This document shows positions 21,254 to 45,200 of a stretch of 64,000 nucleotides of DNA, piece by piece. The notes under the pieces were generated by a model, which was given only the letters and a program-made list of their open reading frames with translations, searched no databases and was not told the origin of the DNA. The stretch is from Amoebophrya sp. A120 (Eukaryota; Protista; Dinoflagellata): positions 4,692,747 through 4,756,746 of the forward strand of contig CAJINV010000001.1 in NCBI GenBank assembly GCA_905178155.1. The letters run 5' to 3'. The position numbers were made by a program, and so were the translations under genes. Position 1 is the first letter of the stretch. Every line of letters begins with the position of its first letter.

Positions 21254-24200
21254 ATGTCCCCGTCCGCCAGTAGCAGCAGTAGAGATGTGATAGAACGCAG
21301 GAATACCAGGATAGAAGAAGCAGCAGGCCCTGATCAGGAGCTTGATCAAGAAAAGAATGTTGCACATGAAGGACTAGTAAACCAAGCAGGTGCCTTGTCA
21401 TCTCGTACTGCCAGCAGCCAGCATGGGCAGCTTGTCAAGCCACGCTTCGTTACCAGGTGCGGCGTCGGGTCTACGCCTAGCGGGCCCGTGCCCCTGGGAA
21501 GAAGCGATGGCAAACAGCGGCCAGCCTGCAGTACTGCAGAAAGCAGAGCAGTAGAAGAGTGCAAGAACATGATGAAATCTATAAGGACGGAGAAAATATT
21601 AAGGCCAAGTGCACCAGAGCAGACGATGAAGGAAGAGCATCAAACAACATTCGATCAGGGCACACGGCACAGCCGTAGTACAAAAAGCTCGCTCCCTCAG
21701 CGCGCAGGAATAATAGCAGAAGCCAGTCTGCGGCCTGTCCAACAGTGTTTCAGGAGGCGTAAAACAGGAACCATGTCAACAGCAAGAGTAGTTTCCAGTG
21801 CGAGGTACGGCTCGAATATGTCGCCGTTGCGGTTGCTGGAAGTGCTGTGCTGCGTGATATACTACCTCGGGTTCGTCTTTTCCTCGCTGGGTCCTCACCT
21901 GTCGATCCCCGTCGTTCACGCCTTCGATATCGTGACGGTGTCGCACAAGAAACAGGAGATCATAATTAACCTGCAGGCCACGTGTCCCTGCGACACCGAG
22001 GAGCTTCCCTGTTTCGATGCCACCGCACTGGAGGGCGAGCAACAGTGTAAGGCGCCGATCTTCACGGCCACCGAGGTGGCGCAGGCGGCCGCGAACGGAC
22101 AGACGCTGCTCCGGTGCGGGACCCTGGTGGACTGCATCGAGGTGAAGCTGGTCACCGAAACGCAGCAGCAACAGTTGGTGCCCCGACAGCTGCTGGAGCG
22201 GTCGCGGCTGTCGCAGTTCAAGGACGAGACCGCGCCGGTGAACGACGCGTACGGCATCCCCACCACACAGAAAAACACCATTGTCTACAGTCGGTGGACC
22301 TACATCGGCTGCTTCTCCGCGCAGGACGTGACCGCGGACGCGCGGGGCACCCCGCCCGCGCAGGCCTACGATCCCAACGCGTGCATCGACGTGTGCACCG
22401 GTCCCGGGGGACTCAAGCGGTCCGAGTACTACGAGCAGCAGCGCACCGTGATCATCGGCATCTCCGGGCTCAGCTGCGCCTGCGTGATGGACAATTTGCG
22501 GCAGTTCATCGCGGCCCCCGGGCAGTGCGACATTCCCTGTCTGCCCTCCTTCAGCAACCCGCTGTGCGGCGGCGAGGGCGACACCACCTCGGACTACTGG
22601 GGGCTGTTCATGGAGTACGAGTACCAGTCCTACGGCTCCAGCGGCGCCTACGACGTGTGGCGCTACCTCTGGTACACCGTCGTGGTCATCAAGGACTCCA
22701 CGCTGGCCACCGGGGGCGGCCAAGCCATCAGTTCCGCGGTCGTCATCAACCCGGAGCGCTACTACCTGCACTGCACCAACGAGGAGGGGCTCGCGGTCTT
22801 CCAGAATCAACTGGAAATCGTGGACACCAACCGCGACGAGTACCTGCTCTACGGCCTCTCCTACGACATCACCGGCTCCAGGCTCATCTGTATAGTTTGC
22901 TTCTTTTGCTAATGCCATTGAGATTGATCATGTTCTTCGTTTGGTTTGTAAAATTGATTAGAACACGTACACGAAAATGTTGCTGATCGTCCGTTTTTTT
23001 GCGAAAACATACGAAAAATTTGTACGACATGAATCCAAACCTTTACAGCCCTGGCGGTGGATGCGTCAACGGGGCGCACGCCGGTGGTGACGCAGAACGC
23101 CGACGACAAGTGGGCGTACAAGGTGATGGCCATCGAGATCGATGAGCGCGACCCCATGTACCCGAAGCTGACGCTGAACGTGAAGGATCTGAACGACGAG
23201 GACTTGCAGTCCATTCCCGGGCTCTATAAGTCTTCCTCCGTGGCGCAGGACAACTGGGTTTTCACGGGCGCCAGCACCATCATCTCGAAGTCCGACTTCC
23301 GTTCCTTCGCGGTGACCGCCGTGGAGAAGTCGGACACTCGCGTGGACCGGTTTTTCCTCTTTCACCTGCTGGACGAGGAGGTGATCCGGGACGGGCTGAC
23401 CTACAAGGAGTTGTCCCGCGTGAAGCTGATCCACCAACAGAACCTGGGGTTCAAGGCGCTGCAGATCTTCGGGGACACCCGCCAGGGCACGATCTCCGCG
23501 CTGGGCCCGATCAACGGGGCCATGATGTACGTGGTGCTGGGGTACCTGTTCAAGGACCCCCGGGGCAACGCGCAGTGGCACAGCTACTACGACGAGTCCA
23601 ACCCAGCCACGGGCCGCTACTGGGCGCAGCAGGAGATCGCCACCTTCCACGTCTACCCCGGCGGCGGGACCAGTGCGCCGCGGAACACCACCTTCATCTC
23701 CTACCGGAACTACCCGGAGTCAGTGGCGGCGCCGCGACCGCGGCTGGAGACGGCCTACTCGGTCATGCAGATCAACATGGCCAACGGGTACACGGAGAAG
23801 TGGTGTCAGGTGGAGTCCTGCGAGATCGGCGACACGCACCGTTCCATCGATCCGGACGTGCCCTACGCAAACCTGTTCAACGCGGAGGCCGGGTTCCCGC
23901 TCAGTCTGTCGGCGCCGAAGGTGGTGCACGCGCGGTTCACCATCGAGGGTCTGTTCCTGAAAATCGTGTGGAACATGGAGACCACGCGGGGTGGGATTCC
24001 GATCGACACGGACGGAGATCGCCTGCCCGACCGAATCGAACAGAGCAAGGACCGCAGCGGTACAGATGTCGTGTTTTGGACAGCGTGCTAGAACAACTGG
24101 GCATCATTCAACAAATTCGTTTTGGATAGGAAAATTTTGCATGCGTAGTCTTTTTTTGATGTGTTGATGGATGCTAGCTAAGTTTTTGCTCGTGCCACGT

Positions 24201-27200
24201 GTGACTAGAAAAGAAACGCACATGTGATGATGTATGTTCCACAAAAACTTTGAAAACAGGTGGTGCAAAGTTTGATTGCGCGGAGCTGTTGTCGCAGGAG
24301 ACCGTCGCTCTGATCGGCGAATACCCCTCCACCTCTTGCACCTGGAAGGATGACACGAGCGCGGGCGAAACGCTGGAGGTCGAGTTCGGTACGGAGTACA
24401 CACTGAAACTGGGGGACGAGATCTCCGTGCTTGCCAACAAGGTATTTGCCAAGCCCATTTGCAGCACTCCGGGTGACTACAGCACCTGCGAGTTCTCCCC
24501 GGCCGCGGTCGGTGAGGGTGCCATCGTGTCGCTGCCCGACCCGCTGCTGCCGCCCATCGTGGTGGTGGAGCCCACCGACGGTACGTTCTCCATCGATGAG
24601 TGTAGTTCCATCGAACTGCGAGCAGATGAGACCAAGCGAACAGGTGGTACAGCGGAGTACTTGTGGGAGCTCGACGCAAGTGACGGCGTTCCATACACGA
24701 GTTTGAACACGGTACTTTTTTCGTACAAGTAGCGCAAATAGTTTTTGATTTTGCTATAGTCACGACAGGCCGCAATTACAATTAGAAATTGTATCCTCTG
24801 TGGTTCGAGTTCGAGTACCGGTTGTTTCTCTTTCCTGTTGCAACAGCTCCAAGAAAACATCACCGCAACCATGAATCGAAAAACACCAGGTTTCGACGGC
24901 GATGAACCAGACACAGTACTCGATTTTGCAGTCCACGCTGGCGAACGAGCAGACGGGTAAGCTGTTCATTTGCGTGGAGTGCATGCCGCAGGGGTTTCGG
25001 TACAAGATGAAGGTGACCGTGACGTCCCGGTGGGGCTACTCGTCCACGCTGTCCTTCGTGGTGGAGAAGGCGGACTACCCCGCGCCCACCATCCGGACCG
25101 GGTCGTGGTCCTCGCCGACCATCCGCACCACGTCGCAGGCGCTGCGCATCGAGACCGAGATCCGGCAGAGTAGTTGCGCCGTGGGGAACCAGCAACTCGC
25201 GTGCGAGTGGAGCTGCGCGACCCACAACCCGGACTTTACGACCTCCGGCCCCACGGCGTCCCTGCCCTGCGACAACAGCCTCTTCAACGCGGAGAAGCTG
25301 CAGTTCCCGGTGCAGGGCCAGGTGTTGGTGATCCCCAGGTACACTTTAACCCCGCCGGTCTATTCGGCGGACGACATGGCGGCGGGGATTACGAAATACC
25401 ACGAGTACACGTTCCAGATCCTGTGCGTGGTGGTCCAGTCCGCGACGGACGTGATCCAAGCCGGCGACGCGGCCCAGGCCAGCGCGCAGAACGCCGCCGA
25501 GAACGTGATCATCCGCGTGGAGCGGTCCAACGTGAAGGCGATTCTGTTCCCGGCGGGCACGGAGTTCCCGCAGAAGGCGACCACGATGGCGTTGAACGCG
25601 CGGTTCACCATGGACCCGGACATGGAGGAGGTGTACGCCTGTCTGCTGAACCCCGGTTCCCTGGCTTGCGACACCTATCCTATGTAAAAACGTCCCCACC
25701 CCATAGTTGTCATGCAAATCTGCATGCTCGGAATGTTTCTCATGCGGAGCCCCATGACAAGCGTTTTCTAGTCGTATTTTGGAATTTGTAATGCTCCAAT
25801 CCGCATGGTAGGCTAGATCTGTAATGCTGCTGAACAAGCTATACAGGACCACACTACGAGGACAAATTTGTCATGCGAAACAACAAAAGCTGGTTGATTT
25901 GTGTAGCAGATTCCCCATCTTGACTCTGGTGTAGGGACGCTTTTAATCAGGATACCACCATCCCCATGTTCGAGGGCGACTTCACCTTCCGGTGCTGGAA
26001 GGTGACGCCGGTGGTGCAGGGCGCTGGCGACGAGGCCGCGGGCGTGGTCGAGTGCGCCGGCGGGGTCTACGTGCTGCGGGACGTGAACTCCGTCTGCCCG
26101 GCCGGCTTCGAAGTGCCGGACGCGCAGGGTTGCGAGGAGGCAGCCACGCAGTGCGGATCGAGCTGGAACGGCTTCGACGCCAACTCGCCCGCAGAGTTGA
26201 CGGGCTGCTTCCAGCGCACCGTGGAAAATGATGTGCAGTTCAACTCCTTCACGCCGAACGCGCTCGTCGACGGGGCGGCAGACAGAAAGCCAATCTGTCT
26301 GAATGGTATTAATTCAAATTTTGATTATATTGGTTGTTTGCGCACGATTTTTGATCGTTAAATGGTTTGGGGAAAGTCCTCTGAAGCGCGAATTGGTATT
26401 CTGATTTAGTGATTGTATACCCAGGGTGGACCACCTTAGCAAGAACATTATGTTTATGCTGGCAATTAAAAACTTCAGATGCTGTCTTGACCTCTGCAAC
26501 CGCGACCACGACGATGCTGGGTACCACCGAGTCCACTTCCACCGGAACTATGATGTCCCCATGCTTCACGTTGGGACTCGGGCCGGGGGGCAACCCGAAC
26601 TTTCTCTACCAGGTGCTGACCAGCGGCGAAATCGACAACTGGAAGCTGCGAAACTACGACCCAACTGAGGTGTGTACGCGTCGCGGCGGGGAGGACATCC
26701 CGCCGCTGGACATCGGGTACAACGTTCAGATAGACCAGGTGTCCTTCACGCAGGGCGACCCCACGGCGACACCGCCCGTGTTGCCGCAGAGTTACTGCTA
26801 CTACGAGGAGGGGTTGCTGCTGGTAGAAACCAACAAGATGGAGCTCTCGCGCAACGAGCAGTTCTACACCTTCCAGGTCGAAGCGCGGCACGACGACGGA
26901 CGCACGGCCACGGACAGTGCCGACGTCTACATCGTGGATCGGTTGGTCTTGCAGGTCTTCCTGAAAGAGATCCGCAACGACCCGGATCTAGCGCAGTTGC
27001 CCTTGACCTCGGTCTACCAGGATGTCACGCTGGAGGGTAGTATCTCCAAGGACCCGAACTTCGACGGCGCAAACTACTACTACCGCTGGGAGATCTACAA
27101 GAAGCAGAGTGGCGGGAATGAGTATTGAAGTTTGATCTATCATGGATCGATTTGATGCTACATGGTACTTGTGATATGCAGATGCACGTTCTGCCGCGTG

Positions 27201-30200
27201 ATTTGCATTTGCTGTTGCAGTCAGTTCGAATTCAATCACTCAATTTTTCTGTTTTTCTTTCGTATCAGGTTTGTGACGGAGTGGAAGAACGAGACGGATA
27301 GTTTCACCTGGACGGACAAGGCCATCATTGAGTGGGATGTCGAGAAAACGTCGCGCATTACGTTTCACTTGGATCCCAACTCGTTCGAGGTGCCACTGTC
27401 CACCCAGCTGCAGCGGTCCACCGAGTACAAGATCATGCTGCACGTGACGGCGATCGTGCTTTCCGGGCAGTACGAGGGCACGTACTTTGGCAAGGCGCAA
27501 AAGATCGTGCGCACCGCTCCCGGGCCCCCGATTCGTGGTGGGTTCGTGATAAAACCGGACTTCTACACGTTTCCCGACGACCTACTAGCGAATCCACAGA
27601 CCAATTTCGCGTTCGACGCGCCGCAGTGGCGCGCGGACTCGTCGTTATCGGGGGGCACGGCGGACTCGGAGCTGACCTATTCCTTCGGGTTCACGCCGGT
27701 GTCGGCCACCGGACAGGCGTCGGCCACGGTGTGGCAAGTCGAGGGGCAGTCGTCCACGCACTTCGAGATCCCCGCGAACAAGATCACGTACGACGGGCAG
27801 GAGACGCTGATCGCCAACCTGAAGGTCTGCACTGTCTACAAGGTTTGCGCGTCCACGGACGTCACCATGAACATGAACTTCAACGAGCAGGCGACCTACG
27901 AGGAGATCCGCACGGCTCTGCTCCCGGAAGAGACGGACCCGCAGCAGATGATCGCGGCGCAGACCACCGTGGAGGGGATCCGCACCCGGCTCACCACGCA
28001 GCAGTACGACTCGCTGCAGAGTGACTTCCGGAACTCGGTGAAACTGTTCAACTACGCCGAGATGGACACCGCGGACCTGGGGTCGGCGCTGCAGGCTTTG
28101 GCTTCGGCCACCTCGTCCATTTCGGACCTGGCGGACCCCACGGCGAAGAACTCCGAGAATTCGGACCTGTTGGACGCCACGGGCGCGGCGCTGGACAGTT
28201 TCGTCGGAAACCCGTCGCCGGATATGGCCAACGCGCTCGTCAACACCATGTCCAACATGTACGCGGCGACCGGCGGTCAGGGCGCGGCCGCCGGGGTGGG
28301 GCGAAGGTAAATATTGCATTTGCACATCCCTGCGACCTGTAGTTTTCTTGCACGCGGTTTCATTGCTGCATGTATTTTACATGGTCTCCTGAATTTAAGA
28401 TTTGCAGCGTTTACGTGTTTGTGCAGGACAGAGAATAAAATTCAAAGTCTTTTCATCACATCACAACACAGGCTCGAGGTTATCGAAATGCTGTCGGAAT
28501 ACGAGGACGAATATGGTGAGGACTTACTTGAGACACTCGAGAAGCACGAGTCCTTTCCGCACGTCGCCTCGGCGGAGAAGGATCTCGGCAAGCAGAAGCT
28601 GCTGGAGGCGACCGAGGACTTGAAGAAGGCGTCGCCGGAAGCCTTGCGCAAACTGCACGAGGAGTTGGCGCAGGTCCTCACTCCGGAGGAGCTCACCATG
28701 GTGTTCGCAGGCACGCAGAACGACCGGGGCGTCCAGATTGGCTTCAGCAGCGACGGCGAGGAGCTGCGCCAGATCGGGCACGACGCGCTGCAGGCGAACG
28801 AGTTCAAGATGCACCCGGGCAGCTCGCTGGAGAGCCGCGTGGAGCACGGTCCCTCGGTCGGGTCCAGCACGCGACGGGCACTCTCCGCGCAGGGGCACGA
28901 CATCGTGAAGCGCATCAGCGAGCAGTACGGGCGGCGGTTCTCGCGGCGCGAGTTCGAGAAGAGGTTGCGCATTCTGCGGGAACTGGATTCCCTCGGCTAC
29001 CACATTCCGGTGCAGGTGTCCGACGGCGTGTCCACCAAGAGCGACATCTGGAAGAAGTTCCGGAACCCCGTCCCCACAGTGTTGGACGACCGTGGCCTGC
29101 CCAAGTACCTCGTGTCTACGGCGCAGATGCGGGCGCTCGAGGCCAAGGAGCAGGTGCGGGGCGAGTTCGGCTCCTCGCTGGTGCAGCACCGGCCGCGGCG
29201 GGCGCCGGGGCACAACCACGAGCAGCCGGGTCCGCGCGACCTGTACCTCCACATGCCGCGGGGCAAGAAGTGCGACTTCTGTGGCGTCTATCGAACGCCG
29301 CTGCCGCTGAAGGACGACGACGGCAAGTTCGAGCCGTACGGGAAATACGAGGAAAGCGACATGAAATACCTGCTCGAGCGAGACAATCCTGACGGTTCCA
29401 AGCGGCCTTTCACGCTGGTCTGGAACCGCACCGCGAGCGTGTACCAGGTCGTGGAGGTGAGGCGGCGCAGGATCATCGCACAGACAGTCAACACGGGCAT
29501 GATGACGGAAGCTCTGGCGGGCACCTCCTACCAGACCGGTGGGGCACCTTCATCGCGAAGACTCGGAGAGACGGGCGAGCAACCAACCGGCACGGCCGTG
29601 TCGCTGTTCGGCCACAAGGCGGACGAGGAAAACCGACGAAAGCTGTCCATGGCAGTCGGCGGTCCACTTCTGTTGCGCAACCCAGAGGCCCTGCAGTGGA
29701 ATCCGGAGAGTCTGAAGGTCCGGCCGGTGCCGCAAGTGATCCACGACTGCGAGTCTTCCTTCTGCGATAACCTCGGTCTGCTGTGCCTGACCCGCTCCCT
29801 CCGCGCTCGCATGGTAGGCGGGCCGGTCTGGGGCCGGGAACGCACGCGGTGGCAGTGCTGTGCGGAGAAGAACCCGCATACACTGTGCAACAAGCCGCCC
29901 TGCTGGCACGAGCAGCGGTGTCCGCGCTCCTCCGAGGAGATGCGGCGGGAGCTGGAGCTGAAGCAGAAGCGCGACCTGCGCAATCTCCGGGGCGAGATGG
30001 CGGCGGCGCGCTCCCGGCGCTCCACCGGGAACAGCATTTCGGACATGTTCGCCGGCTCCCTCGGCGCCACCAGCTCCGCCGAGAAGCACCGCGCCAAGGA
30101 AAAGCGCATGCGGCGGCTGGAGGAGGCGATGCTGAAGGAGCAGCAGGAGGTTTTGGACGACAGCGCAGTCGCAAAAAGCACAAACTGGTTCACGCGCTGG

Positions 30201-33200
30201 ATGGAGGACGAACACCGCCGGAACACCACGGTCGGACGCATGTGGAAGCGGCTCAACTTCACCGAAGCCAACTCCCCGTTCTCTTTCGCGGACCGCGCGC
30301 GCGCCTACGAGCTGTACAGCGAGAGTGAGTCGCGGCGCCTGCAGATGGCGACCAACCTGCAGGCGGACATGACCATGAGCCAGCTGCAGACCATCGCCTT
30401 CGTGGAGAAGTTGGAGCTGCCGCTCCTCGCCGAAGCCAGGAGACAGAAGCTGTCGCGGGACATCTCCATGCAGTCCGCGTCGCTGATCGACGCGAAGCAG
30501 GAGATCGAGTACAACTCGCTCGAACCCACGCAGGCCGCCAGCATGCGGGAGAACGACATCCAGCGGATCGAGGCCGAGCGGCGGGTCAACATGGACACGC
30601 GGCGGAACATCTCCCAGGCGCTCACGCGGCTGTCGATTTACCGCGACCGCCTGGTCCGGGCCATGATCCCGGGTTTGGTCACCAACGCGCGAACGCCGCT
30701 GCAGTTCGACACGCCGATGTTCATGATGGACGTGGGGAAGGTGACGAACATGAGCGACGTGACCACCGCGTTCGTGTTCCCCTCCGAGTTCATCGTGCCC
30801 TCGGACGCGCCGGACGAACCCACGTCGACGAACAACCAGACGGCGCTCGCCTTCCAGTTCGTGCAGTACAAGGAGAACATCTACTACTGGAGTCCCTCCA
30901 ACCCGAGCAACCAGCAGTCCGCGGTGATCACACTGCTGATGTTCTACGCGAACGCGCAGCAGTATGGGAGCGTCAGGTTTGAAATCGACAAAGTTGAAAT
31001 GATTTGTCATGCATAAAATGCATACCAGTTGGAAACCCAATTTCTAAGCGGCGCATGACAAATTTTCCGAGCACCGAAATCCAATTTGTCATGCTGTTTG
31101 GACACAGACGACTGCTTTTGTCATGCTCCTTTAGCAGCTCTACTTCAAACCCTAAACAGGCTGACACGCGGCCTCACTTGCCATCCCGGCAAGACAGGCA
31201 CTTCATGCCTTGCATTTTATGCATGACAAATCCGTAGCCATTTTGGCTCAAGAAGCTAGCATCTGTCTATAGTCAAAATAAGAACTCTGACCCAAAGCAG
31301 AAAACAAAATAATGTGGTCGGTCGCGCCCGGTGCCAACGAGGACACCACTCGCGTAGGAGCCGCCCTGGAGGCTCTCCGCAACGATGTCGCGCACTTACA
31401 AAAACGGACCCGCGTAGCGATAAGGTGCCCCGACGTGTTCCACGAGGGGCAAATGCAGAGAAACACCAACGTCACAAACAAGGCAGAAATCCTAAGGCAG
31501 CTGTCTACAGTAATGGGTCGCGCATCAATGGGCAAGTGCCAAGATGGTGGCTCGTGGTCGCGAGAGCAGACCGACTTCTTCCGAACCCAGACGGAAGCCG
31601 TGGCGGAGTTGTTCACCGAAATCGCGCAGGCGCCGATGACCGTGCAGCACATCCGCATGACAGGGAACAATTGGGGCGAAATCCAGATGGCACCGACTTC
31701 CGCCCTGCAGAACCTGCTTGATTACGCCATCATAGAGTCCCTCAACGTAACTGGCAAGTTCAACAGTCCAGAAATTCACATCAGAATGCCTAGGGCGCCG
31801 ACCAAGAACGGCAAGGGCAAGGGAAAGGGAAAAATCTCCAACAGCAGCGACAACCCAAACCATCTGCCAGTTGGAGGGATCAAAGGAGCAGGAGCAGTGG
31901 TGCTAACGAGCCGCAGCGAAGTTGCAGCAAGATCGGGGATGAGGTCTAGGCGCCGCCAGTCGCGCAGCAGACGTCGGGAGTCTCGCAGCCGCCGGAAGTC
32001 GCGCATCCGGCATGCCCACCGCCACAGCCGTCGCTCCGGCAGCCGCGGTCGCAAATCTTCTTCAGCAAACAAGCAGTCAGACGACAGAGTCTTGCAGGAC
32101 AAGGAGCGCAACAAGGAGCGCAGCTCAGCCAACGGCGGGGAAGCCCGGGCACAAGATCAGCATCAGAATAAGCGGGTCGCAAGCGCGTCTCGATCACATG
32201 GAGAAGGAGCGGGGGCAGCAAAAAAGCAGAGGGTCCACAAGTCGCCGCGCGGCGAGTCCGGCGTCCAAGAAGAGGAAGGGGACGTCGGCGGCAGAAAATC
32301 CCTACCGCAAACTGGAGCCGAGAACGGCGGCCCCGGTACCGCAATCACATTAGCCGAGCTACAATCAGCCCTGGACAATGCAGGCCTGGCCGACGAAAAA
32401 CTGGCGACCAACGTGCGGAACTTATTTAGCAAAGCAGACCAGAGTAAGTCGCCGGCGCTTTGCGAAGCCCTGCAGCACTACGCGACAGAGGTCGACGGTG
32501 GCGACGCGAACCAGCCCCAGAAGCCCAGAACTGCAGCCGAGAGACAGGTCCTGAGGAAATGCGTAGAACAAGCAATCAAAAGTTACGGAGCCGCCCCTCC
32601 AAGCCACGCCCCCACCCCGTCACAGCTGATAATGCCTCCGCCGCGGTTCCCGCCGCCCCGACGCGAGATTCCCCCGGCCGCTAAGGAGACAGGCCAGCAT
32701 CAAGCCGTCTCGGGCGAGAACAATTCCGCGTCGAGCGAAGCCGCAAAACAAGCTACCACATCAAGCGGAGGCGCAAGCGACATTCAGGCCGCCGCCGAAG
32801 GCCCTGCAGCGGTGTCGCCCGTTATCGTGTTGCCGACCACAAGCGAGGAGGAATCCTCCTCGGAATGCACGGACTCTTCGTCGCAAGCAGTGCCCACCGG
32901 CGCCGAAGCAGCTGCTGGCGCGAAAGAATCTCCGGCTGCATCGGAGGAAACGCGCCTGAAACCCGAAGCGGACCTCGCAGAAAATCCGACCGACGAGCAA
33001 AAAGGGCGTCGAAGCGCCGGGCCAGCGGCGGAGAAACGGGAAAGCCCCCGAGCGGCGGAACTGGACGTGCAGGCGGAGTATCTGTTCATAGAGAATTCCG
33101 AACTCGAAGGGAGAATCACCAAAACGGTTGCGGTGTTCGACCACAGTAACCAAATCTGGAGATACATAACCGACGAGGCTAGCGTGCGCAAAACCGAAGC

Positions 33201-36200
33201 CGCCCAGAAGCCGGGGCTTCGGATCGTCAAGATGGCCCCGGAGGAGTACATAGCGTCTCGCCGCAAGGAGATGCAGGAGGCCGCCGCACCAACCCAAACC
33301 AGTGGCGCCGCCAGCCCGTATACGTCGCTCCGCCGGGCTGCAGGGTACCAAGCCCCGCCGTCCCGCGCCCGCACCCAGGTTGGCGGCCTCGATGATAAAG
33401 AGGGAGCGCGCACCCAGGTAGACGACCAGCGACGGGGCTCCCATGATCGGCGCCGCCGCACAAGCAACCAAGGGCGCGGCCGCCGCCGCCCCGACAGCCG
33501 ATCTCCCCGCCGACGTTGCAGCATCAAGGCGTCGCGCGGCCGACCGGAGTCGAGACCACGTCGTCCGGGCAACCGCTCCCCGACTGCCCGCCGCCGGGAG
33601 TCAAAGCCGCGTCGTCGCCACCGCTCTTCCAGATCCCGGTCCCACCGCCGGGGCCGCAGCAATGCAGGGCGCCGGAGGCGCACCCAGTCCCCGAGAACCT
33701 CCAGTGCGAGAGCAGACAGTCGCCGACGCCCGGGAAGGCGAGAGAAGTAAGCGGCCCAGCGGACAGGGGAATGATAGAGCCGAAGTGAAGCTACCGAAGT
33801 GTTGCCGGATGATGAGGCCGAAGTGCCACCGAAAGAAGCAGATCGCATTAGAGCTTCAAGTTTTCCTCGGACACAAAAATCAATCTCTCTGCTGCAAATC
33901 AAAGTAGTGTCCGAAGGAAATCAAAATCGGTTGATGAAACTGCAAGCACTACGATCGCCAAATGAAGAGGATCTGCTTCCTCTACAATGAGCGACCCGAA
34001 TCGCTCTCGGAAAATGCGCGGTCGTCATCTCGAAAAGTGAACCTCTTAACAGAATGATACGGTCGTCATCTCGGAATATGATCCTTGCAACAGAGTAATC
34101 AAATGCTGAAAGTTCTGCCAAATGAAGAGCATATTCCGCGGAATGCATCGAGCTGCGATAAGCTGCCGTTCATTATACTCGAGGAATAAATGTGCTCAGA
34201 CACGGAAGAAGAGCTCCAAGGGGCAGCATCCTTCCCGATACTTCGCATGCCTGAAATAAATACAGACACAGGGAAGAGGAACTCAGTAAGTCGCAAGCCC
34301 GAGCTTGTCATGCGTAGTTGAAGTGCCAGCTCGTGTCATGCTAAGGGTAGTATCGCTCATTACTATTGCAACGCGGAAAGCCAGCTCGTGCCAAGCTAAG
34401 GCCAAGGGTAGTGTCGCTCACTAGTACTGCAACGCGGCAAAACCGGACCGACGTGTTCTCGAGCGCTGGAGCTATCTACCGTTCCCCTGAGCGTCCATAA
34501 GACGGTAAAAGCTGCGGCGAAGGTCGTGTTTGTCTTCAGACACGACGGCACGCGGGTCCAAACAGGAAAAATTCTTCTAGAACAGAGGGAAAAATCCAAT
34601 TTCAGGTCGTCCCTGGAGACGAACAGGCGGGAACTACGGGTAGCGCGCCAGCGACAGACCCCGGGCTCCGGAATGATCTAAACTGCGGCCCCGGCCCTTC
34701 CCGGCGGAGAGGGTTAAGAAACAGGGCGACGAGACGACCGGCCTCCTGCTAGCAGCCGCCCGCCACATCACGCGAAGCATCTACACGCGAAGCAGCGCCG
34801 CTTTCGTGTAGTGAGAAGAACCCGCCTGCCAGGCTTAATCACGGTGACCTAAATTCCACGACAAGGAATCCGTGCCCGGGCGATCGCAGATGGCTACTGT
34901 TCGCGGCCGAATGGTGGCAAGGCTAGAGGACCTCGCGCCGATCCTGGAGCACCCGGCCGTCCCTGCTCCTAATGCCCAACCTGATCAGCCTCCAGCACCA
35001 CCGCTTCCAGGGCCAGCGCGGGAGCCGGTCCCAGCCGAAGACGCGGCGACAGTACAGCCGAAGCACGCGTTCATCCTCAGAGCGGCTCTGGAGCCAGCCG
35101 GCACAAGGATGAAACTAGTTAAAGTCGTCCGGGCAGCATCGAAAAGACTCGCAGCCGGGCTGCGGGCAGCAAAAGAGCACCAGCTGCTCCTGGAAATGGG
35201 GCCACATTGTCACCGAGAACTCATGAACAAAGCCGCGAGCAGGAGCAGAGACGAGCAGAGCCGGGCGCAGCGGGGTGAAGTGGAGGAAACGGAGAGGATC
35301 ATCAGAGCAGGGTTGTGCATTCCCGGGAGCCCAATGTCCTACCACGACGAGATCGCGATGGCGGTGTGGCGAGCATGTTCGGCAAAAACCGGCCCGCTGG
35401 CTACCTGTCCAACCTCCTTCCCAGCGTACACGGGCGCGTGGCCGATGTGCGCAGCGGCCGACGACGGAGTCGCCCTCCGGAGAACAGACCACGCGTTCAT
35501 AGTCGACCCGCGCAACGGACTGCCAGACGGGTTAAAACGCGCTGCCTTCCCCGGCGGTGGGTACATCGCTGCAGACTGGCCCTCGTCCCCAAGTGCCTCT
35601 CTAGCCAGCGCCGGCATACGACACACCGGTAACCGCGTCGACATGGACTTCGCAAAAGCAAACGCCACGAAGGCGTTCGCGCGACGCCTCGAAGCGACGG
35701 CGAAGCAGTCGCATTTCTGGACAGCAGCGGACGGGAGGAAAGCAGCGGACGAACCAACAGAGGAGGACATGATCTGCGCGCCGGAGCGCCAAATCTCGAC
35801 GAGGAACATAGCAATCAACTCGGGCTGCAGGCACGGCAGATGCGCCGACTGTGTAGCCGAGGGACGCGCCCTTCTTCCGGTCTCCCGGCCGCACAACGAC
35901 ATAGTCCATCCCTACTTCGCGTCGTTTCTATCTGTCGAAAGCGTCCCAAAATCCGGCAAGCCCGCCGGCAAGTGGTTCCCGAAGGCAGGAGACCGAGGCG
36001 CAAGGCCACAAGCCGCCGATCCACCGGATCCAGCAGCGCCGGTATTTCTGTGGGTTCCGGCCGAGGCGGAAAGTCTCTTCTCTCCGGAAACGTGGCCGAC
36101 CAAGATGTGGAGGTGCACGCAGTGTGGCGAGGCATCCGGGCACGCAAGCATGATGCTGGCGCACGTCGTGCTCTGCCGCATAGGGCGGCTAGGGCGGCTG

Positions 36201-39200
36201 TCGGACACGGCACTAGCGAAGCTTACGGGCTGGGCCAGAGGGGAGCGATCCGGCCTGATCCGACATGGTCGCCTGATGGAACCGACGACAACTACCAGTT
36301 ACGACCTTGCTGCTCTTCGTCTGAATCTGTGCCACGCAATACCCCCGGAGGACCGCGAATGGTCAAAGAGCCGGCCGTTCATCCTGCTTGTTCTCAACGC
36401 ATCTCGGGGCCTTGCCACGCAATGGCCATGCCTCGTACACGAAATCCAAGCGTCGCAGGCGCTCGCGGTCGTCGTCTCCGAGGCCGATATCTTGACACCG
36501 GATATCCGCCCAAAGGTCCTGGACCTGCTCAACATAACGCTCCGCGGTCGGTATTTCATCTGGCAGTCGGAAAGGTCGCTCGTGCTGGTTGCGCACAGCC
36601 TCCGCCCTGCAGCACACGCCAAGGTGCAAGCGCTACCTGGCGCGCCGACCCTAGTGGCGATGCAGCTAGCCCACGACGACATCGCAGGAGAGCTGGTGGC
36701 CGGGTACTTGCCGCCAGCATCAACCGGCGACCGGGTCTCATTGCGAGAGCAGCAGCAGGCCGTAGTGAAGTACTTGGAAGAAGCGGGGCCCAGCGTCTGC
36801 GCCCTAGCGGGGGATCTCAACGTCAGCACCGGGGCAGTACTCGCGGAGCGCCCGAAGCGCAACGCCTTCCGGGACCAGATTACAGCCGCTGCAGAGCCGG
36901 CCGGGCTTCGCCCTTGCCTGGATCCGGGGGACGTTACCTTCCTCGCTGCAGACAGACAGCCCGACCTAGTCCTGCTCCGCCCCAGGGCCGCCTCCACGAA
37001 AATCGTCACCACCATCCAGACCCCCAAATTCCTGCCGGCAAACGCCAACTCCCACGAACGAATAGACTGCGAGCTGCGTCCCGCAGGCAGCCGGGAAGAG
37101 GAGGCGCGAGCCGCCCAGCCCCAGAAGCAGCTTCAGCCCGGCCTCGTCCGCCGATTTGTCTACCAATGGGCAAGCTTTCCACAGGACCTGCTCGACCGGG
37201 TACTTGCCCGAGCCCGCAAGGCCCTTGCCGATCCGGATCCGGACGAGGAGTTCACGAGCGCATCTCTGGGCCGGATCCTCCGCGCCGAAAACGCGCCGAA
37301 ACGGAAAGCCCCGATCCCCGCCGCGCACCTGACTCTCCTTCGCGGGGACGGAACCCTCTCACAATCAACTGCAGAATCCATGGAGGAGTTCCGGTGCAGA
37401 CTCCTAGAGGGCAAACCAGCCGGCCTGCGTCGCCCTCCAGAAGAGCAGCAATTATTGGAGGCTGAGATCCGCGCCATCATCGACCGCGCCCCAGATTGCC
37501 CGATAGAATGCACGCGAGACCTCGCAGCGAAGGCCCAGCGGAGACGAAACAAATCCGCCGCGGCGGGACAAGACGGCGTGCCTGCGGGTTTGCTGCTCGC
37601 AAGTTTCTCCCTCTGTTGGGCCATCTGCGCAGCCGTATGCGCGGCGCTAAACAACTTCTCCGAGCCGCCATGGAGCAAGCAATACCTTATCGCCTGGCTG
37701 TGGAAAAGCAGCAAGCAGGGAACTACGAAATTCCTAAGCCGTTTCTGGCGGCCTATCTCTCTTCTGAACGTGCAGGACAAATTTTGCGAAGCAATAATCT
37801 ACGAAATCGGCCTACCGCTACTCAGCGAATTCCATGACAACACAGCCTTCCACAAATCGTTATCTCCTGCCGTCGGCATTCTCCGCGCCCTACTCATCGC
37901 CATGCAGTCTTCGTCCAAATATGCCGCGTGCATAATAGGCGACATTCAGGGCGGCTTCGAAAACTGCTCCATGAAAGAGATCGTAGAAGTTTTAGCAAGC
38001 AGGGGGGCAAGCAAGCAACTGCTTACGGCGGTGGTGCATTGGATGACGGGCAGAACCATCCGGCTCCTGGTGGACGGTTGCATGTCTGCCACGATAGCCC
38101 TGGGAGAAGGCCTGGGGCAAGGCACGCTATTGAGCCCGGGATATTTCCGTATTGTCGTGGAGTCGTACCTGAACCAGCTCGGCCTCCGCTCAAACTTCCT
38201 GGAAGTGGTCACAGGCTATTGCGACGACATAGCGATATTCTGCACGGGCGAAACGGAGGCGGAAATCAAGGAGAAGCTACGAGACCGCGGGAACAAGCTG
38301 CTGCGGATGCCTTGGCCGGTGGCAGACTTCCGGATAGCCGTCCTGAGGTCCCCGGCTCATGCGAGCGGAGACGAGAAGGCCCTGGCCTCCTTCTTGCGCG
38401 GCTTCTCCGTCACGCTGGAGAACGGCCTGCGCCTCCAACCCCCAGAGATCGAAGTCGTCCTAGACAGTGACGCCTCCACCGCGGTACGGGTCCGGGGCCA
38501 AGGGAAGCGCTACAACAAAGCGGCCTACGCGGCGGTGCTGGGTGTGCCACTAACAACCAGCGGCGAAGCCTGGCGCAGCCATTTCGGCGATCTCCAGCGC
38601 CGCGTTTTCGCCTCCTCCACGGACACCAGCTCAACAGACGACTTCTCCCCCCTCGAGGGGGTCGACCATTTCCACCAGAAAATCTATAATGTCCTCCAGT
38701 ATATGTCGTCCGTGAAGTCCATGCTGTGCCCATCGGCCTTGGTAACTCTGGACGACATGGCCGAGAAGGCTCTCCGCCGAATCATGAAGATCAGCCCCAC
38801 AGCACCGGCATACTCTACTTTCCTTTCGGCGGGCGCAGTCGTCCCGTCAAGCGCAGCTCTAGCGGAGCGGACCGCGTTGTGCGCCCAGGCCATAGGGTTG
38901 GACGACAAGAACTTCGCGCGCGACATGACGGTGGGGGAGCTGTTCGACCTCCGGCGGCCGGGGTGGACCCATTTAAACATCAGCCACGAAAGACACCCTT
39001 CCGAACACCTGCCGGACGCGGTGCAAATAACAAACGCGGCTGCCACTTTCGAGAAGTACGGCCTTCCCCACGCGAAGGCCAACACGCCGGAGGTCGCAAA
39101 AATGCTGCGGGCCGACTTCGAGGCCCTGGAGCGGACACTGGGTCCGGGCCTCCTATGGGTCGCGACCGATAGTGGGGACGCCCCACCGACGCCGGGCGAG

Positions 39201-42200
39201 CCGCTGCGGAGCCCGAAAGAGCGGATGGCAACAATAGTGATGCGCCGGGGGGGAGACGAGAAAGGCGAGAACAGTCTAGCTCTGCGGCTGCGACATACCC
39301 TGGCCACGTTCTGGGGCGAAGCGGGCGCCCTCGGCGTCGCAGTCCTCCTGCTGTTCGATTCCCTCGACGTCCCGCTGGCGGCCATCAACGACCCGCGCAT
39401 AAAAGTCGTCGTCTTCCAATGCGATTCCAGTCCTTGCCTAGACAACCTGGCGTCATCGAGAACGGAAGAGACATGGGTGGCGCTACGCACTGCCCTCGTC
39501 CAATTAAGCAGGGCGCTCCCGCACATCAAGTTTGTCCTGCACTGGACTCCGGGCCACAGCTCAATCTCCCCGCACACGGAGGCGGACACCTTACAAAAGG
39601 CGTCCCAACTCCCGTCCGACAGGCTCGAGCGGTACATCGAGCTCCGTATCCCCCTCCGCCAAGTTCGCAACTTCATCCGCGCCTCTCTTCGAAAGGAAAT
39701 AGTAGATGCGGTGCGTGCGCGGGGCGAAGTGTCGCAAACAGGAGCTAGCCGCGGCCTCATCTCCGCAGAACTAGGGAACGCCCGGCCCTGGCTCCGCGGC
39801 CTCAGCTCCAAACAGCAATGGATAGCGTGGTCAATCTGCAGCGGCGATGGCCGACTCGCAGCCAAGGAGGCGGGCAGCAGTGCCGGATCGTCGTGGATTC
39901 GCTGCGGCCTGTGCAGCAAAAAGGTGTCAGCGACAACAGCTCTACCGGCGTCCCAGGGCGATCCTGCCTTCTCCCAACAAGACCCGGAAGTAGTGCTTCA
40001 GCAAGACGACACAGAATTCGGCGCGATAGACATAGCATCCGCGGAACTAAAAGCGCAGCAGGACCGCGCCCCTGCGGACTACGCCAACGCCGCGACGCCT
40101 CCCGTGGCAGAAACGGCTGCTCCCGGCCCGGAACTAGAACAAGATCAAAGCAATGACGCGCCGGGAGACGTTACGGAGGATGACGCAGCACGGGAAAGCC
40201 GTAGTGCGTCCGATCGCCATGTGTTGTTCAGCGGTTACGCAGTCCATGTCCTCTCCCAGGAGTGTTCCGCGATAAAAGAATTTCTGGCAGACAACGACAT
40301 CGAAGCGACACCAAGCCACAAGGCCCTTCGAAAACCGGCCAACGCGATCCGGGCCTTCTTGTCCTGCGTCGGGCCCCCCCCGCCCCCAGCGGGAGAGTGG
40401 CCAATAGAGGCGGCCCAGAGAGAGAAGCGCGACGACAAGCCCCCCCCTCCAGCAGTGCAGAAGAACATCGAGCGAGCAGCACGAGCGTACCACCTGATGG
40501 TGGAAGCAAAGGCAATGAACCCGCCGCCCCCAGCCTCTGCTACTCAGGACCCGTCTCCCGACCCCCGCCCGCGCGACTTCGTCCCGGACGAAGCGCACCG
40601 CTTCTACACTGCCGCCCCGGACGCCACTCAACCGGAAATAGCGGACGGAGCCGCGGCAGCAATTAGGGCCCTAGAGATAGTTCAGCCGGACCGCCCGGCC
40701 CCGAAACCGGGCGCCCCGGGCCCCGCCCCGGCCCCTCCACAAAAGCCGCCGGTGCTGCTATCGGGATTCTTTCGTGACCAGACCCCCTTTCGCCACGATC
40801 CCTGGTCCCACCTGCGTCGGCCGCCCCCCGCTCCCCAGTCCCCAGCCATCACACGCAGTAGGAGCCCTCGCCTGAGATACCGCCTTCCTACGCCCATCCA
40901 CAGCGCATCATCCTGCGCTGCAGCACGCAGCTTCTCACCTCCAGTCGAGGCCCCGGAGCTGTGCCTTCGTGCCCAGACGATGCAAATGCAGGTCGCGGAG
41001 TGGAGCGACGACGAGTCGATGGGCACCGCAGCTGCCGCTGAAGATTCCCGCCTTCCCGGGCAGCCGCTGATTGAGATCCCGCCGAAAGTAGAGATACGCC
41101 TGGACCCGGTGACAGGGCTCCCCATCGGTCCTTCTGACCCAGTATTCTGGGATCCGCTGGGGGAGCTCAGCGAGGACGCCTCGCAAGACCTCGAAAGCGG
41201 GCGGCACGTCTAACAAAAATAAGCAGCTAAGGGCAGGCTTCAACGTAGAAGCGACATGAGCTCGAAGCTGAGAGAAAAGGAGCCCCGCACACGAGCATAA
41301 TCCCGCAACAACATTAAGATAGGCTTTTGGCGCCATAGCGTGCTGCTTCGGCAAAAGTGCGCTCGACGCCGACGCACTAAATAGCACCAGGTTAGAACAA
41401 AGTCAAAAGAAAGCTACTGTCGCCCGTCACCGCAAAAACTAACTTTATCATCGTCGTCGTCTGTCATCGTCCTTTTCGTACCTGGCCTGCTAGGGCCCAG
41501 CCGGCAAACATGTGGCTTTCGGAAAGCAGGCTGTAATCGCACGACCATGGCAATGCTAAAAGCGTACGACTGTCACTTCTCGTCTTACTTTCGTTTACTT
41601 CGTAGTTCTGGTCTGCGTCTGTTTTTTTTGGTTTTCTGCTCCGGCCCCTTGCATGACATCTAAAAGTACATAATAGGGACGAAGGCGTGGTTGCCGCATA
41701 GTTGCGGCCTAAGAGAGGACCGCGGGCCTGTGTTGTTGATGGAGCCCACGCATGACGAAGTAGAAGCCTCATGAAATAGTCTCTCTGTGTCCTCTTCCAA
41801 TAACAAAATCACTAAGTCAGGAGCCGCAGGAGACTCGAGCCAGCGGAACGCGCTGCGGAGCCGCGCGACGAATCGGTGAGCCAGCAAGCCGAGTCCACGG
41901 ACTGTGCATCCAAGAGCCGGAAGTGGGCTGAGATCTGTCAGTCAACGTCGGTAGACTATGCATGTCAGTGCGAGTATGTATGGCTTCTCGCAGATGTAGG
42001 GCAAGATAGTCCCCGTTGTTTTCGCCTCAGTTATCTCTCTTCTATCTATGACGCCTGCCTCGGTGCTACCAGCCACGTAGCTGAACGTGTCTCGAAGAGC
42101 CCACCTCCGTGTTTCTTCCTCAGCATACGCACAGAGCCAGCGTCAGCCACCAGCTCGCCATGAAGATAGATTCTAAGCCGTCCGCTGCGGTGCCGCTCAA

Positions 42201-45200
42201 TCAGTCCGCCTCACAACCCGCTCGCACTGTGCCGACGACTATCGCGAGATGCCCAGGGTCGTACACGTCTCTCTGGGTCCGATCTCCGTGACATACCGCT
42301 GCGGCCCACAACTCCAAGGTGTACGCGCACACTAACGGTAGCCGCCCGATCAGTAGGTAGTGGAGGACTGTCCACGCCACCAAACCCGCCTCACCAGCCT
42401 ACGACCGGCAATTCGCAGCTGTCTTTCATCTCCGCGGTTCTATGGCAAAACCGACAGCTCGATGCCCCTCCGCCCGGCGAGTGCCTCACGTCGCTCCTGC
42501 AGGGCCACCCGTCCCTCCGACTGCGCCGCGCCGGTACCTGCGTCTCGCGTGCTGCTGGACCACCATCCTCCCGTTTCATATGCTGACGTTCTTCTGTGTA
42601 TCAATCCGTCAGTTTCCCGCATTCCGGCGCTCTCCAGCCAGTTCCAGTGTTGCGGTGGGGATAAGCTTCAAGTATCTTCCTTCTCAGTAACAGGCGCTCC
42701 CAGCTCGTCGTGCCGCAAGCTCACCAGCAATTCCTCTTGGGTCGAGGCCTTTCCTCGGAGGTGGGGTTGGGCTTGGGGCGCCAGGCGTATGGACGGCTTC
42801 GCAGCTACGTCGTGATCGACAAACTGAGATCGGCGATTCTAGTTGTGTTGCTGGTCCTGTGCCAGTCGCGGGGCATGTTCGGGTGTTCCGGGCAGTGCTT
42901 AGTGCACCCCTCGGACCCCGCACCCCCCCGGGCTTTAGTCGCGCAGTCTGTTAAGCATGACAAATCCCAACATGACAAATCATTTCAACTTTGACGATTT
43001 CAAACCTGACGCTTCCATAAGCAGTACCCCGTGTGCGTGGAGGGCCCGGGCTGCAACGTGAAGAACGAGTTCATCCGCGTGTTCGCGGACTACTCCGTCT
43101 ACTCCTCGGGGATCTGCATGATCTGGGATCGCTTCTTCCCGGACACCGCGGGCGGCGCGTGGAACGGCCGCGACATTGTCAACGACGGCAACGGGTGCTT
43201 GACCCTCACACTAGGCGATCTCGGCTTCTTCGTGGACGGACGCCCCTCGTATATCTTCTCGTTGACCGAGGCCAGCACGTTCCCGCTCTCCAGGCTGGTA
43301 TCCAGGACGAAACTGTCTACCCTGGCGACGCTGGTACAAAGACGAATTTTTGTTTTTTTTCTGCAGTTTCTGGCTCGCCTTGGCAGCTCGTACAGTGCCG
43401 AAGAAGCTTGTGCTAAATTGATTTTTTTCTGCATAATTCTAATGAATTATTGATTTCGAACACAAAATCAATCGAAGTCGAACTCGAAGCAAGAACGCTC
43501 TCCACGCGAGTGACTTAACATTCGCCGCTAGTTCAATGTGATTTGTACACGTAAATCTAAAATCAATCATTCTCCCATCTCCTCAGGTGATGATCCTCCT
43601 TTTGAATTGGTTCCTGGTTTTCTGGGGATACAAGCACGACGAGAAGGTGCGCAGCGACCAGCGTGCGGGCATCATTCCGTACACTGCGTTCCACTACGAC
43701 GGCGACGGGATCCACACGCCCCAGAACGCCAACGACCCGATCGCCTACAAGTTCGCGGATAGCCGGAACCAACTCTTCCTGAAGACGTACTGGAACGTGC
43801 TGAAGCGGGAGCACTTGGCGATCGCCCCGATCTTCTACCACGAGACTTTTACGCGGCCGCAGCGGCTGCTGTGTACCATGGGGCTGATCCAGGGGCTGAT
43901 GGCGATCAACGCGATGGTGTACGGCATCCCGAACAAGTTTGCGTCCAGCGAGCAGTTCGTGATCAGCGGGATTTTATCCTCCCTGCTGATGTTCCCGGTG
44001 TACTGCGTGTTCCTGATGATGTTCACTTCGCGACCCATGCCCGCGAAGCGACGCATGATCAAGAAGCGCCAGGTGGCTCGCGAGTTGGACTTGATCAACG
44101 CCGAAAAGGAGAAGTTGATCGCGCAGTCGCAGTTGCTTCCGAAGGACGCCGCACCCATGCTGCCGATCGGCGGTCTGGCCCAGCAACAGGAGTCGATGGC
44201 GCTGTTGGCGCTGCCGCCGCCCATTGCGGGGCCGGGTCCGGGCGCAATGCTCGCGCTGCCCGGGCCGGGCGGGTTCTCCCAACCTCCGGCGCCAAAGTAC
44301 CCGCCGCCGCCGGGGTACGCGAAGGCGCTGCCGCCACCGCAGGAGCTGCTGCCACCCATCTACTTCGGACGCGCCGGCATGCCGCAACTGCCCGCGCTGC
44401 CGTCGTTCACGCCGCAGCCGAAAACCTCCACCCCGCCGCAGACCGCGGCCGCACTAGGCGGCATGCGGGCCATCACGCCACGGGGGAGGGCGCCGCTGCC
44501 GCCACCGGCCATCGGGCCGCCGGGGGAAGGACCCGGCACACCCATGGCCGCGGAAGGCGCGCATAACCTGACGCCAAACAGCGGATTCAGCACGCCGTCA
44601 CCCCTGCACGCACCAAGGGAAGGCATGCACTTCATGGTGCCGGCCTCGTCCAGCAGCAGCAGTTCGTCTTCTCGAGGTTTGTTGAGTGGCGGTAGTTCAA
44701 GTTCATCTAGTTCGTCGTCCTCTTCGAGCAGGAGAATAAATCAAAACAACTTAACATACCGAGAGGAACAACAGAACACGAGTGTCGACCCTCTTACGGT
44801 GCAGCAATATCCAGGCGTGCAACAGCCAGAGTCGTTCTGGAGCCCCGTGCGGTCCGGCGGATTCCGGTACCACCCGAATGATGAGAGGATAAGACAGGGA
44901 AATGATGTTGAGAACAGATCCAGTAGTTCGTCCTCTGCTTCGTCCGAAGCCTCGGAAAGCCCACGGGTCGCCTCACCCGCCATGAGTGCACGGGAAGCCG
45001 CGCACTCCGGCGACGAGTTCGAGGCCGAGGAAAGCATTCCCGTGAACTGGTTCGAGGGGGACCATGAAATGATGCCGCCACCACCGGGAGGAGCCGGGAG
45101 GCCCCCACCGCCCCCGAAACCGCCAGCGCTGAGTGGCATGCCGAGTCACAATCCAAATGGAGGTAAATTGATTTTTTACATTATGCGTTTTTAGTACTAA

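Follow-up and report, generated by a model that had tools for sequence, protein, structure and literature searches.

An intact LINE that begins with a perfect dinoflagellate spliced leader inside an introner of Amoebophrya sp. A120

Within the 64,000-nt stretch of Amoebophrya sp. A120 DNA analyzed here (the window) lies an uninterrupted LINE whose first bases are a perfect copy of the spliced leader found in dinoflagellates (DinoSL, or SL). Because the DNA begins with such a copy, its template was most likely a leader-capped RNA, and we consider it likely that the LINE derives from a trans-spliced RNA. The full explanation, that this is an intact, full-length LINE starting with the leader, copied from leader-capped RNA and inserted into an introner, is in our judgment probable. 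The features of the locus are collected in the table.

Table. Features of the LINE, the introner and the host gene (positions in the window).
Feature	Positions	Strand	Remarks
Host exon upstream of introner, long ORF	28488..30957	+	No Pfam match; depth 579 and 666 in spliced RNA contigs
Introner left terminal inverted repeat	30963..31022	+	Flanked by short direct repeat; joint slides by 7 nt
Introner body and start of right inverted repeat	31023..31221	+	76% alike to 61952-62147
5′ target-site duplication, CATGACAAATC	31222..31232	+	Final 2 nt common to SL
DinoSL	31231..31252	+	AG at 31236-37 and 31251-52; next bases AA, not GT
5′ UTR, A-rich, 59 nt	31253..31311	+	Without SL relic (p 0.57)
ORF1, 812 aa	31312..33750	+	Predicted N-terminal helix and RRM-like domain, then R/S-rich low complexity; RNA-covered
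ORF1-ORF2 spacer, 1.14 kb	33751..34889	+	AATAAA at 34185 and 34255; ORF1 RNA contigs stop at 34270 and 34329
ORF2, 2107 aa from first ATG	34890..41213	+	Without stop or frameshift
ORF2 domains			APE ~aa 495-730; RT YCDD aa 1110; RNase H ~aa 1420-1570; Pro-rich tail
3′ region, 1.76 kb	41214..42954	+	41630-42775 at two-copy depth; final ~200 nt multi-copy, diverged
16 extra nt with second target-motif copy	42955..42970	+	Donor flank, re-priming or older scar
3′ target-site duplication, CATGACAAATC	42971..42981	+	11 nt
Introner right inverted repeat, leftover 49 nt	42971..43019	+	47/49 complementary to left end
Downstream host exon	43020..43333	+	In RNA, joined in frame to upstream exon

With up to 3 mismatches allowed, the window contains no DinoSL match other than the leader, TCCGTAGCCATTTTGGCTCAAG; none of 100 shuffled sequences contained a match, and the expectation from base composition is ~3e-8. 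The first-pass annotation had named both this perfect 22-nt leader and the 59-nt UTR behind it, and both are present. The element is joined precisely at the 3′ end of the SL, at its natural AG terminus, and the GT of the SL intron is absent, the state expected after trans-splicing, so that a genomic SL stands directly ahead of a 5′ UTR and an ORF without the SL intron, as in DinoSL retrocopies. SL relics were sought in the UTR, the spacer, the sequence ahead of ORF2 and the 3′ region, and none was significant (p 0.43-0.95). A search of 12.2 kb with Rfam for a ribozyme gave none, its single match lying at chance level, and the first 100 nt of the element fold no better than shuffles (z +0.4). 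A single contig (31203-41654; 10,452 nt) carries the SL, UTR, ORF1 and ORF2 unbroken at single-copy depth, which indicates that the UTR was not recently copied from the UTR of another gene.

The element is an APE-type LINE, with a non-LTR RT, APE ahead of RT, a target-site duplication and no LTRs; neither LTRs nor a long internal repeat were found in it. ORF2, which spans 2121 aa when measured from stop to stop, had been reported as an uninterrupted APE-RT-RNase H frame of 2113 aa; the domain order is borne out, while the length is right from an in-frame GTG at 34872 and becomes that of the table from the first ATG. Its RT matches Pfam RVT_1 (E 6.9e-13), and the closest PDB sequences to it are R2 (E 0.006) and L1 ORF2p (E 0.13). 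A Pfam search for an APE domain gave no match; the APE fold was recovered by Foldseek with probability 1.00 to APE1/ExoIII and E 3e-4 to APE1 from a model of low confidence (mean pLDDT 50.7), and the APE catalytic-type motifs occur in order. RNase H was recognized by hhalign (84%, E 7.6e-6). Homologs of ORF2 in EukProt comprise three proteins, g19049, g15100 and g7340, at 40-47% and two fainter ones. ORF1, of the length given by the first-pass annotation, looks LINE-like in its predicted structure, although its best fold match is weak: against 48,161 chains, the top match of the model was the central domain of human L1 ORF1p (Z 5.6, a score shared with unrelated helical proteins and below the trust range of the tool; rmsd 3.8; 87 aligned residues), and the L1 ORF1p trimer ranked third for residues 5-160. 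The prediction reached pLDDT 68 in just one of five models, and its Foldseek matches are weak and mainly to RRM proteins. A full HMMER scan with ORF1 returned two proteins, one of them, P0008, a close homolog (44%) whose source is Amoebophrya sp. A120, and residues 1-210 used as a query returned no matches. Separately, aa 585-655 of ORF1 are similar to part of an unrelated protein, P0009.

The duplication is 11 nt long or, in an alternative reading with its partner at 42955-42967, 13 nt, and shares 2-3 nt with the start of the SL. The alternative was put aside as less parsimonious: the 11-nt duplication rebuilds 58 of 60 pairs of the inverted repeat, versus 49 with 13 nt. The SL does lie at the 5′ junction, but not strictly "immediately after" the duplication as first described, since the two overlap by the first two SL bases. 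For the same reason, the data are in keeping with a template copied as far as nucleotide 1, and go no further; the other part of that earlier claim, an SL-bearing LINE RNA as template, is supported by the junction at the SL 3′ end, the absent GT, the LINE-like ORF1 and the single-copy UTR. A 3′ poly(A) or simple-repeat tail is frequent in LINEs, though not universal; at this element's 3′ end none is present, and the terminus is a copy of the target motif.

The flanks of the LINE together rebuild a 308-nt non-canonical introner, into whose right inverted repeat the element is inserted. The introner has inverted repeats and a short direct repeat, belongs to a repeated family and is removed from mRNA. 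In the RNA contigs of X3 and X4 (depth 579 and 666), the host exons are joined directly (30957 to 43020), a joint absent from the DNA run X1, so that the host mRNA skips all 12,062 nt, LINE included. This in-frame joint and a canonical GT-AG intron at 43334-43586 place the host gene on the forward strand, in agreement with the shared orientation of LINE and host first described.

RNA over the element is concentrated on ORF1 (depth 36.5-40.8x versus 0-1.8x for ORF2); the dominant element RNA is ORF1-only, and these runs contain little RNA of full length. The element has two AATAAA motifs in total, both shortly before ends of ORF1 RNA contigs, a coincidence that was spotted after the fact. The ORF1 contigs start 49-54 nt 5′ of the SL, indicating that some molecules read into it; X3 and X4 represent one sample, and contigs carry no information on RNA starts, strand or level. 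In DNA run X1, which is possibly the data from which the window was assembled, the depth of the element body (45.6 versus 42-46 in the flanks) corresponds to one full-length copy, remains single-copy at 85% likeness, and rises only in the 3′ part; in the run search, the stretch was present in 7 rows from 2 studies, and 4 of 10 runs were mapped to it, among them the raw-read run X8, which contributed 0 reads. Relatives sought by protein pattern were confirmed in 0 of 326 metagenome-contig stretches and 0 of 123 viral-contig stretches. Behind 256 unique environmental SL sites (242 loci), 121 of them with at least 3 kb downstream, none of 4,560 ORFs encoded RT or APE by phmmer, tblastn and small custom profiles, nor did Pfam find either in 100 of the 311 longer sense ORFs, a weak negative, given that the metagenome scan extended to 2 of 64 parts and that contigs were mostly short.

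We propose that an element RNA, trans-spliced and leader-capped, was copied by the LINE's own reverse transcriptase until 0-2 bases from the 5′ end of that RNA, and that the product entered the right inverted repeat of the introner in the sense orientation, producing the 11-nt duplication. Second-strand synthesis may have been primed by pairing of the last two target bases with the start of the leader, and the insertion is probably recent. The copy, shorn of sequence 5′ of the old acceptor, would be fed by transcription starting upstream of the leader, probably host pre-mRNA, and ORF1 RNA would be polyadenylated in the spacer.

How the family propagates is a separate matter. The copy may be a one-off that shed its promoter, a parent with its own promoter and outron having given rise, through a trans-spliced message, to a daughter expressed by the chance of its landing site, while the family spreads mainly via unspliced RNA. 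We regard this as less likely than not. It fits the ordinary logic of DinoSL retrocopies, the near absence of full-length RNA and the trypanosome element L1Tc, which uses an internal promoter and leaves its RNA unspliced (PMC1874656). The DNA run shows no longer parent, the depth of the body staying single-copy even at 85% likeness, although a parent could have gone by segregation. Somewhat doubtful, in our view, is a promoterless cycle in which the terminal AG of each genomic copy's own SL serves as the trans-splicing acceptor that frees the copy from the host pre-mRNA, or from the excised intron, and gives it an identical 5′ end in each round. The LINE is sense-oriented within a strongly transcribed gene, a T-tract precedes the terminal AG, ORF1 RNA exists and its contigs extend 5′ of the SL, and reuse of the AG of a genomic SL as acceptor has been published for retrogenes (PMC3229502, PMC5585692). 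However, the published reuse commonly involves the internal AG, which often leaves a 15-nt relic rather than an identical end (PMC5585692, PMC12014239), and that relic occurs in 10 of 123 metagenome SL sites. A UTR free of stacked relics (p 0.57) is expected from use of the terminal AG, but equally from a parent that had no SL; element RNA mostly ends after ORF1, and one copy provides neither a series of 5′ junctions nor an orientation bias.

It is unlikely that the genomic SL is a heritable part of the element and serves as a promoter or together with one, such that its TTTTG motif, or else an internal promoter, would set the RNA start at the SL or close to it, whether or not trans-splicing follows. 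The SL TTT(T/G) was proposed as a retrogene promoter with conservation as its sole argument (PMC5585692), ORF1 RNA stands well above the remaining intron, and DNA-encoded DinoSL precedes many ORFs in giant-virus bins, but a start 3′ of TTTTG would trim the 5′ end, and the RNA contigs extend 5′ of the SL. Less probable still is a template-switch chimera, in which the LINE RT jumped to SL RNA or another SL-capped mRNA, which would make the SL, alone or together with ORF1, a captured retrogene. Chimeras of LINE RNA are known (bioRxiv 2025.02.02.635956), the spacer is unusually long, ORF1 has a separate RNA, and the resemblance to P0009 could be read in the same way; against this, the junction lies precisely at the SL exon end, the DNA run holds no second copy of UTR or ORF1, and the ORF1 fold is nearest, if weakly, to L1 ORF1p. 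A NeSL-, SLACS- or CRE-like insertion into an SL RNA gene, or else an artifact of assembly, would put an SL exon at the junction, yet we consider both nearly certain to be wrong: the flanks reconstitute the introner rather than an SL gene, neither junction has a GT donor or SL intron, the endonuclease is APE and not restriction-like, and the contig cited above crosses the junction.

NeSL, SLACS, CRE and CZAR target SL genes by a restriction-like endonuclease, and the architecture of L1Tc/ingi comprises APE, RT and RNase H. Our LINE resembles the former in having SL sequence at an element junction (accessible text of PMC4640811), but possesses APE, and its empty site is an introner; the earlier statement that the arrangement is a different one is upheld by these features and by the missing GT after the SL. 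As with L1Tc/ingi, the host trans-splices its mRNAs, although L1Tc starts at +1, with an internal promoter and unspliced RNA, whereas the present copy carries the SL (PMC1874656, in part). Like human LINE-1, the element has an ORF1 with a predicted helix and RRM-like fold, APE and RT, and a short duplication with 5′ microhomology; unlike LINE-1, it has RNase H, a 2107-aa ORF2, a 1.14-kb spacer, and the SL where LINE-1 has a long UTR that bears its promoter. It shares with DinoSL-tagged retrogenes, the "mRNA recycling" of Slamovits and Keeling 2008 as cited in later papers, a DNA copy of the SL ~60 nt ahead of the start codon (PMC3229502, PMC5585692, PMC12014239), and in those genes the SL AG was likewise proposed as a later acceptor; here, the copied RNA belonged to an autonomous LINE, a target duplication is present and a stack of relics is not. 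The introner, a member of a repeated family with inverted repeats, non-canonical ends and a short direct repeat, resembles the Amoebophrya introner elements of Farhat 2021 (PMC7789003), where inverted repeats measure 8-20 nt versus ~60 nt here and the range analyzed was 40-1000 nt, versus an exactly removed intron of 12,062 nt here. According to that paper, each Amoebophrya genome has a single SL locus with all 22 nt. In Schistosoma mansoni, fusions of genomic SL exons with transposable elements, six in number, were described as possibly trans-spliced and retro-transcribed elements, with chimeric assembly not excluded by the authors (Boroni 2018, PMC5832876), in another phylum and with another SL. 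SL-bearing retrotransposons had thus been noted before; no description of an SL-headed dinoflagellate LINE was found in the literature covered, most subscription papers and Repbase lying outside that coverage.

The papers on DinoSL retrogenes left the responsible reverse transcriptase unknown (PMC3229502, PMC5585692, PMC12014239), and Song et al. 2017 (PMC5585692) stated as much for the enzyme behind dinoflagellate retroposition. An intact LINE whose copy reaches the leader is a candidate source of that enzyme for mRNA recycling, and its reverse transcriptase is assayable on SL-capped RNA. A broader scheme, in which a promoterless LINE targets introner inverted repeats, is spliced out harmlessly, and is freed and capped at its own DNA-encoded leader, spacer polyadenylation splits ORF1 and ORF2 in an operon-like manner, and the same enzyme makes leader-tagged retrogenes, is a long shot; such targeting, if true, would mean that the element always lands within a transcribed gene. 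The locus raises the question of how a LINE retains its full 5′ end in a cell that puts new 5′ ends on its mRNAs. In trypanosomes, L1Tc escapes trans-splicing; the present copy seems to have undergone it. It is also a natural experiment in non-canonical splicing, a 308-nt hairpin-ended intron having grown to 12 kb with a right arm of 49 nt; its removal to the base despite the shortened arm points to end-defined splicing, and introners may be safe havens for insertions.

The element is a real, intact LINE headed by the spliced leader (SL); it is probably young, and its site is informative. Its DinoSL is the only one in the window, and 100 shuffles gave no match at up to three mismatches. The leader, 59-nt stretch and ORF1 described in the first-pass annotation were all recovered; the ORF2 length it gave holds from the GTG but not from the ATG. 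In ORF2, reverse transcriptase (RT) was detected by Pfam (E 6.9e-13), with R2 and L1 ORF2p as nearest solved sequences in weak matches, the APE fold by Foldseek (probability 1.00; the model used had pLDDT 50.7) and RNase H by hhalign (84%). ORF1 had no Pfam match; the model of its N-terminal 200 aa (pLDDT 68, the best of five, the remaining four at 32-42) found the human L1 ORF1p central domain as the best of 48,161 chains, at Z 5.6, tied with unrelated chains. ORF1 has one close relative (44%), labelled Amoebophrya sp. A120, and ORF2 three EukProt relatives (40-47%); taken with the introner-type introns, these indicate an organism of Amoebophrya type. A 70-aa stretch of ORF1 shares 45% identity with the N-terminal end of P0009, a 574-aa protein elsewhere unrelated to ORF1. 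P0005, a EukProt model in which DNA primase is fused to part of a LINE ORF2, is probably an artefact of gene modelling where an element inserted.

Features of the element, its insertion site and the surrounding window
Feature	Position	Description
Inverted repeats bounding the intron that holds the element	30963-31011 and 42971-43019	
Target-site duplication, adopted	31222-31232 and 42971-42981	11 nt
Target-site duplication, set aside	31221-31233 and 42955-42967	13 nt
DinoSL	31231-31252	
UTR-like stretch		59 nt between SL and ORF1
ORF1		812 aa, 3′ of the 59-nt stretch
ORF1 stretch resembling P0009	about 33060-33280	aa 585-655
ORF1-ORF2 spacer		1,139 nt
AATAAA	34185 and 34255	
ORF2		2107 aa from ATG; 2113 aa from GTG at 34872
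3′ sequence behind ORF2		1.76 kb
SL + ORF1 contigs (X3, X4)	31182-34329 and 31177-34270	depth 36.5 and 40.8
CLC chloride channel gene exons	5034-8757	
Second inverted-repeat introner family	2000-2600, 10400-10670, 56190-57260, 59500-59780, 63330-63590	TTCCAGACCCAGAC ends
Paralogous host genes or gene halves	21250-25700 and 53400-62900	DNA about 75% alike

The 11-nt duplication was adopted because removing the element by this reading leaves a 308-nt introner whose ends are complementary at 58 of 60 bases (49 of 60 by the 13-nt reading), and because three paralogous contigs of X1, a run behaving as DNA, join 31221 directly to 42971. This duplication shares the first two SL bases and does not end before the leader as had been claimed; the element therefore supplied at least SL bases 3-22. 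Copying of the template as far as nucleotide 1, as first proposed, is possible, but bases 1-2 lie within the duplication. The empty site is an introner rather than an SL gene, and AA, not GT, follows the leader; the arrangement of NeSL and SLACS is therefore excluded, in agreement with the first-pass annotation; SL-gene-targeting elements have been published (PMC4640811). The insert's final 16 nt repeat the target motif and could be flank brought along from a donor located at this motif, a re-priming product or an older scar, each of which would, in this single case, hint at a site preference. The motif GCATGACAAAT, noted together with the second introner family, occurs 10 times in the window, once within the LINE's 3′ end. 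Introner positions differ between the two paralogues, whose long exons had no match in Pfam.

Most simply, and in our view probably, the element arose when a trans-spliced LINE RNA was reverse-transcribed, because the junction falls exactly at the natural end of the SL and X1 DNA depth reveals no second copy of the UTR or ORF1 as a capture source. Because trans-splicing removes everything 5′ of the acceptor, three routes are left for an SL-headed copy: release, a one-off origin or self-starting transcription. Release, as first proposed, would have transcription begin upstream and free the element at its own SL, which we consider rather unlikely. The absence of SL relics (p 0.57) fits use of the terminal AG, but fits equally a one-off daughter whose parent carried its own promoter, a reading we rate as possible, if short of an even chance. 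Published reuse is often at the internal AG (PMC5585692, PMC12014239), and an internal-AG relic is present at 10 of 123 metagenome SL sites. It is unlikely that the SL or an internal promoter starts the element's own RNA; SL as promoter has been published in a paper that states the retroposition enzyme to be unknown (PMC5585692). A promoterless, introner-targeting cycle is likewise unlikely.

X3 and X4, from one sample, were taken as RNA on the tool's guess and on exon joints absent from X1, and their contigs cannot give RNA starts, strand or level. Because the ORF1 contigs end in the spacer and ORF2 bins have depths of 0-1.8, the predominant RNA of the element in these runs is ORF1-only, which is new within the literature searched. 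The two AATAAA motifs, noticed after the fact, are the only ones in the 11.7-kb element; this signal is reported lacking in free-living dinoflagellates (PMC3229502). Some molecules read into the SL, as the contigs begin about 50 nt before it. Host mRNA (depth 579 in X3, 666 in X4) carries the joint 30957->43020, which leaves out 12,062 nt bounded by non-canonical ends and re-establishes the reading frame; intron 30958-43019 is thus removed exactly, though the LINE cut its right inverted repeat to 49 nt. Such a tolerated 12-kb non-canonical intron is likewise new as far as we searched.

In X1, from which the assembly may have been built, 31203-41654 forms one 10,452-nt contig (depth 45.6; flanks 42.3 and 45.6), with five differences from the window in 41289-41390. 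Depth is 82 over 41630-42775; for the final 200 nt, summed depths range from several hundred to about 4,800, and differences are numerous. A single full-length copy accompanied by 5′-truncated relatives is what LINEs usually show, although a transduced flank is possible; rough arithmetic on one depth bin puts the second copy's start about 125-155 nt before 41630.

No RT or APE was found behind 256 environmental SL sites, a weak test, since 3 kb of downstream sequence was available for only 121 of them. A microsatellite, SL and long unannotated ORF occur together at several sites; in metagenome contigs L065, L069, L059, L007 and L019 a microsatellite or simple repeat precedes the SL and a long ORF without Pfam match, and these are possible ORF1-like retroelements, L065 containing no RT in 4.9 kb. 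L056 (51-1016, minus strand) has an SL and a gag-like 313-aa ORF with a C-terminal CCHC zinc knuckle, and in L190 (2929-5292, minus strand) an RNA-virus RdRp ORF begins close behind DinoSL near the contig end. AT-rich giant-virus bins among IMG/VR contigs L125-L242 (GC 18-23%; GVMAG-M-3300023179-82, GVMAG-M-3300023174-52 and GVMAG-S-3300013131-116, for example) contain exact DinoSL copies, encoded in the DNA, ahead of many ORFs and on either strand. One bin was assigned 67 unique sites, 59 with an ORF of at least 100 aa within 300 nt and two with GT behind the leader; an A immediately precedes the motif in 127/133 viral sites. The sequences suggest genome-wide leader mimicry or retrocopied genes. 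DinoSL near viral genes has been published (PMC9651163); judged by titles, no paper on its genome-wide occurrence in such bins was found.

SL-AG reuse by retrogenes (PMC3229502), SL relic patterns (PMC12014239) and, for Amoebophrya, both introners and one complete SL locus in each genome (PMC7789003) are in print. Six SL-bearing transposons are described in Schistosoma (PMC5832876); L1Tc stays unspliced (PMC1874656). No description of a dinoflagellate LINE headed by the SL was found in the open-access literature. The components of the idea are each known on their own, and their combination in an intact element is, within the literature searched, new.
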